A stretch of 11,947 bases of DNA, taken from a virus (taxonomy: Duplodnaviria; Heunggongvirae; Uroviricota; Caudoviricetes). The notes under the pieces are model-generated. The model did no database searches. It saw only the letters and a list, made by a program, of their open reading frames with translations, and was not told where the DNA came from. The stretch lies in IMG/VR virus record IMGVR_UViG_2896601577_000004; one strand, given 5' to 3'. Below, piece by piece: positions 934-3,662 of the stretch (the stretch's first letter is position 1; every line of letters begins with the position of its first letter). The position numbers were made by a program, and so were the translations under genes.

Positions 934-2350
934 TCAAATATTTTCGCCATTGTTGGCGATGAGATCCCGATACCAGTAAAACGACGCTTTACGTATCCGT
1001 TCCAGCGTTCCCTTCCCTTCGTTGTCTTTATCGACATAAATCATTCCGTAGCGCTTTTTCATTTCCCCTGTTCCGGCAGAAACCAGGTCAATGCAGCCCC
1101 ACGGGGTGTAGCCAATTAAGTCAACACCATCTTCAACTACGGCTTTTTTCATTTCCCGAATATGGGAAGCAAAGTAATCAATGCGATAGTGATCGTTCAC
1201 CGTGCCGTCAGCTTGTCTCTGGTCAACCGCACCAAATCCATTTTCGACAATAAACAGCGGCAACTGGAAATGATCCCAGAACCAGTTGAGTGAATAACGT
1301 AGCCCTGCCGGATCAATTTGCCATCCCCATTCGGATGTATCGATATAAGGGTTGCTGACCAAATCTCGTGGTTCAACATAATCCAGTTGCGGGTTATCGG
1401 GCGAAAATTGTGTCGTAAAAGACATGTAGTAGCTAAAGCCGATAAAGTCGACACAACCACTGGCAAGAATCGCGTTATCTTCTGGTGTGATATCGAGGTT
1501 GAATCCTTTCCTGGCAAAGTAATTCAGCATATGTTGCGGATAATATCCACGAGCATGAACATCAGTAAACCAGTAACGACGATGCATTGCTTTCGTGGCC
1601 ATCATCATATCGTTGGGTACACACGTCAGAGGATAGATGGGATACATGGCGATCATACAGCCAATGTTAAATTCAGGATTGATCGATTTTCCAGTCTGTA
1701 CCGCCAGGGCACTGGCAACTAACTCGTAATGTACCGCCTGGTACATTATTTGTTCGCGCTCATTGATATCTTCCTCTGGCGAATACAAGATACCGGAATT
1801 AGTAAATGGACACAGGCTTTCGCTGAAATTCACCTGATTATTGATTTCGTTAAACGTCATCCAGTACTTTACTTTTTCTTTATAGCGCGTGAAGACCGTT
1901 GATGCGAAGCGGATAAAAAAGTCGATCAGTTTACGGTTTCGCCAGCCACCATATTTTGTCACCAGATGATAAGGCATCTCAAAATGTGAAAGCGTCACCA
2001 CAGGTTCCATTCCCTGCTTAAGGCATTCATCGAACAGATCATCATAAAATTGTAAACCCTCTTCATTCGGCTCCTGTTCGTCACCTTGCGGAAAGATTCG
2101 TGTCCAGGCAATGGAAGTTCGAAAGCATTTGAATCCCATCTCGGCAAATAACTGAATATCTGTTTTATAGCGATGATAAAAATCAATTGCTTCATGATTG
2201 GGATAATTAAGCCCGTCGATAACGCCTTCTGTCACTTCACGCGGCACCCCGTGAGCGCCAGCAGTCATCACATCAGCGATACTGATGCCTTTTCCTCCTT
2301 CATTCCAGCCACCTTCCAACTGATGCGCGGCTACCGCGCCGCCCCATAAA
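934..2350 (-). CDS. 6-phospho-beta-glucosidase, glycoside hydrolase family 1 (BglA-like paralog); 5'-truncated by IS911, lacking roughly the first 11 codons and its promoter, so probably a pseudogene
   Basis: The 461-aa ORF has GH1 hallmarks ([21 protein letters not shown] near the N-terminus, TFNEIN, IVENGFG) and is closely related to recalled E. coli BglA. The reading frame continues upstream of the TTG at 2319 to the IS911 boundary at 2350/2351, where the codon for the F of the FLWGG motif is broken. Confidence 0.85.
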
Positions 2351-3197
2351 TGAAGTGGTCAACAAAAACTGGCCACCGAGTTAGAGTTTTTCCAGTATCG
2401 ATTTTCCGATTCGTTTGGGGTAACCCACCGTTATATTCGTGCGGTCTTAGTGCGCTGTAATATCCAACGATATAGTCCGTTATGGCGTGAGCTGCCTCGC
2501 TGAAGCTTACGTAACCCACCACCGGCATCCATTCGTTCTTCAGACTCCTGAAGAAGCGTTCCATTGGGCTGTTATCCCAGCAGTTTCCGCGCCGGCTCAT
2601 ACTCTGTCTGATCTGGTATCGCCACAATAACTGCCGGAACTGCCTGCTCGTATAATGACTGCCCTGATCGCTGTGGAACATCACCCCGCCGGGCTTACCA
2701 CCGGTTTCCCATGCCATTTCCAGCGCTTTCATGGTGAGCCTGCTGTCCGGCGAGAACGACATGGCCCAGCCCACTGGTTTTCTTGCGAACAGGTCGAGAA
2801 CAACGGCGAGGTACGCCCAGCGCTTACCCGTCCAGATACAGGTCACATCACCGCACCACACCTGATTTGGCTCGGTCACGGCGAACTGCCTTTCAAGGTA
2901 GTTAGGGATAGCAACATGTTCATGACCACCACGTTTATACCGGTGAGTCGGCTGCTGACAGCTGACCAGCCCCAGCTCTTTCATGAGCCTGCCAGCAAGC
3001 CAGCGTCCCATCTGGTAGCCTCTCCGGGTTGCCATTGTGGCGATGCTTCTTGCTCCGGCCGAACCATGGCTGATGCCATGTAGCTCAAGTACCTGACTGC
3101 GTAATACAGCCCGTCTGCCGTCTGGTTTTTCAGGACGGTTTTTCCTGTATCTGTAGCTGCTGCGATGAACCCCGAACACTTGGCAGAGTGTGACCAC
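2331..3197 (-). CDS. IS911 transposase OrfB (DDE domain), expressed as an OrfAB fusion by -1 frameshifting; this copy appears to carry a 1-bp deletion near the 3' end that replaces the C-terminus and reads through the inverted repeat into flanking DNA
   Basis: 288-aa ORF of IS3-family OrfB type. The other frame of the last ~60 nt encodes ...[19 protein letters not shown] with a TGA stop inside the inverted repeat, which matches the recalled canonical ending. Confidence 0.85.
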
Positions 3198-3223
3198 AGG
3201 ATAATGCGCTCTGAGTTTCCCGA

Positions 3224-3526
3224 TTATCGAGAACAGTTCAGGGAGTCTGACATCAAGAGCGCGGTAGCCTTTTTTAATATTTCATTCTCCATTTCAATGC
3301 GTTGTAGCTTTTTCCTCAGCTTACGTATTTCGATTTGTTCTGGTGTTATCGGAGAGGCTTTTGGTGTTTTGCCCTGACGCTCATCACGCAGTTGTTTGAC
3401 CCATCTTGTCATTGTGGAAAGGCCAACATCCATAGCTTTGGCGGCATCTGCCACCGTGTATTTCTGGTCAACAACCAGTTGAGCGGATTCGCGTTTAAAC
3501 TCTGCGCTAAAATTTCTTTTTTTCAT
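3224..3526 (-). CDS. IS911 OrfA (helix-turn-helix / leucine-zipper regulatory protein, 100 aa from [11 protein letters not shown]...)
   Basis: Matches recalled IS911 OrfA; the ORF-track start at 3562 is an upstream alternative start, ATG start at 3526. Confidence 0.9.
3268..3274 (-). promoter_or_regulatory. Programmed -1 ribosomal frameshift heptamer A AAA AAG of IS911 (OrfA to OrfAB)
   Basis: Heptamer seen in the OrfA frame at the ...LKKA... codons (reverse complement CTTTTTT on the plus strand); known IS911 mechanism. Confidence 0.7.
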
Positions 3527-3598
3527 TGGAGCACCTGTGTTGTTCTGAGGTGAGCATATCACCTCTGTTCAGGTGGCCAAATTCAGTGTGCCACTTCA

Positions 3599-3659
3599 GG
3601 AATCGAACCCGCATCATCAGCTTGGAAGGCTGAGGTAATAACCATTATACGATGCCCGC
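3599..3659 (-). tRNA. tRNA-Gly (anticodon UCC), 3'-truncated: the first 61 nt are present, the last ~14 nt of T-arm/acceptor are replaced by the IS911 left end
   Basis: Minus-strand sequence GCGGGCATCGTATAATGGTTATTACCTCAGCCTTCCAAGCTGATGATGCGGGTTCGATTCC is near-identical to recalled E. coli glyT up to the T-loop, then runs straight into the IS911 inverted repeat. Confidence 0.7.
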
Positions 3660-3662
3660 ATA

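Follow-up and report, generated by a model that had tools for sequence, protein, structure and literature searches.

The stretch analysed here, called the window, is the 11,947 bases of IMG/VR record IMGVR_UViG_2896601577_000004. It contains a full-length copy of the insertion sequence (IS) IS911, copy 1 (2351-3598, minus strand), set between two truncated genes: a glycoside hydrolase family 1 (GH1) 6-phospho-beta-glucosidase remnant (919-2350, minus strand) and the remnant of a prophage tRNA-Gly(UCC) gene (3599-3659, minus strand). The whole window aligns at 100% identity to positions 676,813-688,759 of the Shigella boydii chromosome CP026867.1 (comparison loci L025 and L032), and the truncated glucosidase product carries a Shigella boydii name in NCBI and UniRef. 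Comparison with related chromosomes makes it very probable that copy 1 is a recombinant of two older, directly repeated IS911 copies, produced by a homologous recombination event that deleted about 60 kb.

Copy 1 is 1248 bp long, against about 1250 bp in the matched Escherichia coli IS911 copies and about 1250 bp expected for an element with ends beginning TGAAGTGG. Its right inverted repeat (IRR) begins TGAAGTGGTCAAC at 2351; its left inverted repeat (IRL) begins TGAAGTGGCACAC and, on the window strand, finishes ...GTGCCACTTCA at 3598. Over its full length it is 99.0-99.6% identical to the elements that RefSeq annotates as 'IS3-like element IS911 family transposase'. Copy 1 has the terminal inverted repeats, the orfA and orfB and this level of identity in common with a simple insertion of canonical IS911 (IS3 family), and differs from one in its unrelated flanks, its lack of a duplication and an altered orfB C-terminus and stop. 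The 100-aa orfA (3224-3526) is intact. A run of G at 2416 is one G short; this 1-nt deletion changes the last ~20 orfB residues and removes the normal stop, so that the open reading frame leaves the element through the IRR and ends at 2331, 20 nt into the glucosidase remnant.

On the IRR side, positions 919-2350 match E. coli D6 (L001 6001-7432) with 99.8% identity. The intact coding sequence there, 1440 nt, occupies 6016-7455; since the match stops at 7432 and the gene reaches 7455, the window remnant lacks the first 23 nt. Its stop codon is at 934-936 and it covers positions 19-476 of the NCBIfam profile PRK09589. The gene is interrupted in the Phe codon that precedes LWGG (M-S-G-F-K-K-G-F-L-W-G-G), within MSGFKKGFLWGG. 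In E. coli D6 the intact locus consists of marRAB, the glucosidase gene, a porin gene, phosphotransferase system (PTS) IIA/IIC/IIB genes and a GntR regulator. On the IRL side, 3599-3659 corresponds to nt 1-61 of a prophage tRNA-Gly gene, 75 nt long, that is intact in FDAARGOS_944 (L002 5987-6061). The match starts at L002 6001, which is base 15 on the window plus strand, so the 14 nt of the tRNA 3' end (TGGAGCGGGCAGCG, window plus strand) are missing. ARAGORN called the adjacent tRNA-Thr, tRNA-Arg and tRNA-Met genes in the window and made no Gly call at the remnant.

The triplets bordering copy 1 are AAA (2348-2350) and GGA (3599-3601), and the 4-nt flanks, TAAA and GGAA, are also unequal; IS911 characteristically duplicates 3 bp, rarely 4 bp, of its target. 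An IS copy without a target duplication ordinarily means a rearrangement, and the absent duplication at copy 1 marks a rearrangement after insertion rather than another element. Unequal triplets are what chance would give, so the controls are other insertions: a complete IS600 in the window (4651-5914, minus strand, 1264 bp), flanked by the duplication TCC (4648-4650 and 5915-5917), and the IS911 found in the glucosidase gene of relatives, flanked by AAA/TTT. Their clean 3-bp duplications agree with the mode of IS911 transposition, which passes through a transposase-made circle or figure-of-eight, with 3-4 bp of flanking DNA between the ends in the circle (PMC2909936).

These flanks had been described correctly in an earlier note on this DNA, made from the sequence without database searches: it had the IS911 end replacing the last ~14 nt of the tRNA-Gly gene, the glucosidase gene cut in the F codon of FLWGG, and flanking triplets GGA and AAA with no duplication between them. 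The span it gave, 2331-3660, does contain IS911 but takes in ~20 and 62 nt of flank as well. Its proposal that the two flanks were brought together by rearrangement, and not by insertion between adjacent sequences with a 3-4 bp duplication, agrees with the E. coli references, which place one flank at the mar region and the other in a prophage. In the S. boydii lineage the prophage remnant occupies the ttcA/integrase (Rac) site.

Each flank of copy 1 adjoins a separate IS911 copy in relatives. The junction of IRR and glucosidase gene, ...CCCCATAAA/TGAAGTGGTC, is identical in eight other loci (L015, L016, L028-L031, L033, L034) from at least six S. boydii assemblies, including the complete chromosomes CP026866.1, CP026762.1, CP026797.1 and CP049285.1; the gene order in CP026814.1 is the same as in these eight loci. 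On the IRL side all eight carry AAAAAACCTTTTTTAAATCCTGACA, which is the gene's own missing 23 nt plus a 3-bp duplication, and the porin gene comes next. The relatives thus read ...CATAAA-IS911-AAAAAACC..., a total of nine T/A where the uninterrupted gene has six. Because the IRL side holds the gene's 5' end and the 3-bp duplication, the glucosidase IS911 of the relatives is an ordinary insertion, and the AAA at 2348-2350 of the window is the kept half of its target duplication. In the 2.6-kb draft contig DADMJK010000302.1 (L044 1130-1260) the porin remnant is followed directly by the glucosidase gene, with no IS911, and the insertion site has five T, not six. The contig represents an IS-free allele carrying a frameshift, or else the assembler skipped the IS.

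The other junction, between IRL and the truncated tRNA-Gly gene (tRNA-Gly'), is identical in CP026762.1 (L009), CP026866.1 (L024) and CP045784.1 (L010). There the IRR abuts IS110-type DNA in one case and IS66-type DNA, at separate points, in the other two, and none of these IRR partners duplicates GGA (L009 15984, L024 13760, L010 15062). Since the tRNA-Gly' junction already lacks a duplication in the relatives, truncation of the tRNA gene is older than the event that made copy 1. A 113-nt chimera of the missing tRNA-Gly 3' end and the IS911 IRR had no match in the E. coli genomes or the comparison loci. Neither a glucosidase/IS911 nor an IS911/tRNA-Gly' junction was present in 5,426 complete E. 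coli genomes, the sole junction match, at 88%, being VL7S7, where IS911 adjoins a holin gene 580 bp from an intact tRNA-Gly gene. Among the records compared, none besides CP026867.1 has both flanks on one IS911.

Two close relatives place both loci on one chromosome, with the IS911 copies in the same orientation, and it is from these two, by record ranges and alignments, that spacings were obtained. In CP026866.1 the IRR ends lie at 1,305,416 (tRNA-Gly copy) and 1,367,565 (glucosidase copy), 62,149 bp apart. The corresponding ends in CP026762.1 are at 1,066,222 and 1,124,129, a spacing of 57,907 bp. A single crossover between such direct repeats gives tRNA-Gly', IS911 and the truncated glucosidase gene in that order, which is exactly the structure of the window.

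We propose the following sequence of events. One copy, A, would have inserted normally at codon 8 of the glucosidase gene beside marRAB, duplicating AAA/TTT. A second copy, B, would have had its IRL against the already truncated prophage tRNA-Gly gene at the ttcA (Rac) site. In an ancestor of CP026867.1 that presumably had a layout like that of CP026866.1, A and B would have formed direct repeats with a spacing of about 58-62 kb. A crossover within their 1.25 kb of homology, most likely carried out by the host's homologous recombination enzymes, would have produced an element whose IRL portion, attached to tRNA-Gly', came from B and whose IRR portion, attached to the glucosidase remnant, came from A, while one IS911 copy and the intervening DNA would have been excised and lost, leaving the excised DNA, as we suppose, nowhere else in the genome. 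Homologous recombination is favoured over transposase action since the glucosidase-side junction is an ordinary insertion junction with half of the AAA duplication. Of the two routes named in the earlier note, IS911-mediated deletion or inversion, the first thus stands and the second does not, the parental copies being direct repeats; the agent was most likely recombination between two existing IS911 copies, not the transposase.

Bases that differ between the two parental copies help to place the crossover. The deletion at 2416 is shared by copy 1 and the glucosidase copy of CP026866.1, to which it is private, and the tRNA-Gly copy of that chromosome has the full G run. At 3235, A is found in copy 1 and in the CP026866.1 tRNA-Gly copy, and T in the glucosidase copy. 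Such a pattern is what a crossover between the two copies should leave, and it would put the exchange between 2417 and 3234. Single-nucleotide polymorphisms relative to CP049285.1, AKNB01 and CP026762.1 were uninformative for its position, CP026866.1 being the only informative relative.

The DNA between the parental copies was seen in part. In it are elements of the IS66 and IS110 types; sitD, sitC and the beginning of a neighbouring ATP-binding cassette (ABC) ATPase gene, presumably the sit operon; a LysR regulator gene (ydcI-type); ydcJ-, opgD- and ydcH-type genes; an acetyltransferase gene (rimL-type); and ydcK', tehA, tehB, IS1, IS600, ydcL, IS629 and the porin remnant. The segment taken to be lost also contains the glucosidase gene's first 23 nt. 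Two sublineage-specific products of the interval, a 380-aa porin remnant and a 102-aa ydcK fragment, are on record for CP026866.1 and not for CP026867.1, whereas the flank markers, a 76-aa YbcO' and the 444-aa glucosidase remnant, are on record for both. The CP026867.1 chromosome is 72 kb smaller than that of CP026866.1. The CP026867.1 strain is accordingly predicted to be without the sit, tehAB and opgD segment, and so without genes for metal uptake (of which sitCD were seen), tellurite resistance and glucan synthesis.

Several points weigh against a recombinational deletion. Just two informative sites back the crossover pattern. The bases C at 2702 and T at 3146 occur in neither parental copy of the relatives and in both cases occur in a second, partial IS911 of the window, copy 2, so that at least one further conversion, between the inverted copies, or consensus polishing must be assumed. 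The absence of the interval is judged from exact-sequence look-ups of called genes, and with exact matching a single sequencing error would hide a gene. The TehB marker is ambiguous, as it did not distinguish four similar places, and about 29 kb in the middle of the CP026866.1 interval was unseen.

Copy 2 itself (8428-9397, plus strand) is the IRL-side 970 bp of an IS911 truncated by IS629. Copies 1 and 2 lie 4.8 kb apart in opposite orientations and are 100% identical over 971 nt (2629-3599 and 8427-9397). The shared bases 2702 C and 3146 T correspond to 9324 and 8880 in copy 2 and are absent from the orthologous copies of the closest relatives. This identity suggests gene conversion or an effect of assembly polishing.

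Among other explanations of the copy 1 junctions, we consider it improbable that the assembler collapsed two near-identical IS911 copies and dropped 60 kb, the strain really having a layout like that of CP026866.1. The hybrid pair of junctions is known from one assembly only, at 2416, 4543 and 11501 the window differs from its relatives by single-base indels of a kind typical of uncorrected long-read data, and copies 1 and 2 are suspiciously identical. However, a repeat of 1.25 kb is far below the usual length of long reads, unplaced contigs would be expected had 60 kb of unique sequence been dropped, and the six IS elements and fragments of the window otherwise agree with those of the relatives. 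The deletions at 4543 and 11501, seen against all relatives, frameshift a Q-like DUF1133 gene and an integrase remnant, respectively; each could be a genuine mutation of a pseudogene or a homopolymer error of the long reads behind CP026867.1.

An inversion or translocation, in which inverted or distant IS911 copies exchanged flanks, would leave the reciprocal hybrid surviving elsewhere in CP026867.1, with other DNA (IS66-type) at its IRR and AAAAAACCTTTT, the glucosidase 5' end, followed by the porin gene at its IRL. Shigella chromosomes do carry many IS-bounded inversions (PMC8072062), and the orientation of the Rac site relative to the mar region in the window is the reverse of that on a map of E. 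coli K-12 type: in the window the order ttcA-int...tRNA-Gly'/IS911/'GH1-marB-marA-marR (L025/L032) has the mar genes reading backwards. The chance that this accounts for copy 1 is nonetheless very small. The two closest complete relatives already have mar in the window orientation, with their IS911 copies direct and 58-62 kb apart, so the inversion relative to K-12 predates the copy 1 junction and the inversion read from the K-12-type map was rejected; moreover, the two interval markers are off record for CP026867.1. We also rejected an inversion between copies 1 and 2 of the window, because the IRL flank of copy 2, GCCCGAAAGG..., is prophage DNA upstream of queH and not glucosidase sequence.

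An adjacent deletion made by the transposase, with the IRR of the tRNA-Gly' IS911 attacking the glucosidase gene and no second copy involved, would likewise leave an IS without a target duplication, and IS911 does move through a transposase-made circle or figure-of-eight intermediate (PMC2909936), but it is exceedingly improbable here, for the relatives carry IS911 where the target should previously have had none, the breakpoint is the exact nucleotide at which at least eight related loci have an IS911 insertion with a normal duplication, copy 1 shares the glucosidase copy's private deletion at 2416, with the orfB C-terminus shifted, and independent repetition of this is very unlikely.

Recombinational deletion between IS911 copies, the explanation we retain, belongs to a familiar class. 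The reshaping of Shigella chromosomes by IS copies is a standard process (PMC8072062), and copy 1 shows no difference in kind from the IS-bounded deletions and rearrangements of these chromosomes: the IS load is high, a hybrid IS without duplication stands at the breakpoint, the losses include genes for metabolism and transport, and strains differ in layout. The phenomenon is ordinary in Shigella genomes and already well known. Literature searches did not find the ~60-kb loss between the Rac site and the mar-glucosidase region of CP026867.1 described, and searches with the accession numbers had no match. The case provides a nucleotide-level example of the erosion of a Shigella chromosome, from insertion through recombination between copies to the loss of ~60 kb, and illustrates how comparison with close relatives can resolve an IS without a target duplication into two parental insertions. 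In annotation, the remnants of the glucosidase and tRNA-Gly genes count as pseudogenes. Beyond such bookkeeping its significance is small.

The tRNA-Gly'/IRL junction is constant among four S. boydii genomes that differ at the IRR, where the partner is IS66-type DNA at either of two points, IS110-type DNA or the glucosidase gene. With four IRR partners, none matching GGA, the tRNA-Gly' IS911 appears to have exchanged partners repeatedly. That it is a recurrent, non-random exchange point, owing, for example, to a transposase-driven reaction between IS ends or to a recombination hot spot beside the prophage tRNA cluster, seems unlikely to us; if true, exchanges would be far commoner here than at other IS911 copies. 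CP026866.1, the closest relative, has an extra IS911 in queH (L024, about 5787-7035), with a clean GCT duplication, that is absent from the window, so IS911 was still transposing after the strains diverged.

The window as a whole is a dense IS mosaic, with IS2, two IS911, two IS600 and IS629 in 12 kb. It begins within IS2, whose right-hand part (1-917, plus strand; orfB 1-906, NCBIfam IS2 TnpB, 1.3e-219) ends ...GGGGCAAATCCA at 917. The IS2 insertion, which separates marB from the glucosidase gene, also occurs in L025, L028 and L029, where IS1 and then marB come after it. Outside the left edge come the remainder of IS2, IS1, and then marB, marA, marR, marC and ydeA, and outside the right edge ttcA and dbpA, which identify the Rac prophage site.

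From 3599 to 8427 (minus strand), as judged by gene content and the comparison loci, lies a remnant of a lambdoid prophage at the ttcA/intR (Rac) site, holding the tRNA cluster, the frameshifted Q-like DUF1133 gene, ybcO' (cut by the IS600 at 4651-5914), a DUF1367 gene, rem, hok and queH. It resembles the defective E. coli lambdoid prophages of Rac/Qin type that have a tRNA cluster downstream of Q: its order queH-hok-rem-DUF1367-ybcO-Q(DUF1133)-tRNA cluster is shared with intact prophages in E. coli and Shigella (L002, L006, L012), and it adjoins ttcA and an integrase remnant. It differs in that only about 3.6 kb of prophage DNA is left, split by IS600, and in having an inverted pair of IS911 copies around it, their IRL ends facing inwards. 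These 4.8 kb (3599-8427) between inverted IS911 IRL ends have a layout like that of a composite transposon.

To the right, IS629 (9398-10707, minus strand, 1310 bp) stands between IS911 copy 2 and a fragment of IS600 (10708-11102), which it joins; the integrase remnant is also in the right part of the window. The triplets flanking IS629 are GTT (9395-9397) and ATG (10708-10710), a second hybrid junction without a target duplication; being common to CP026762.1 and CP026866.1, it is older than the event at copy 1.

The tRNA-Thr, tRNA-Arg and tRNA-Met(CAT) genes beside the tRNA-Gly remnant are intact (3663-3895, minus strand; ARAGORN and RefSeq relatives). The last of them, at 3819-3895, is tRNA-Met (CAT) according to ARAGORN and tRNA-Ile in the RefSeq annotation of the same prophage cluster in relatives; a tRNA-Ile with a CAT anticodon would be of the lysidine-modified type.

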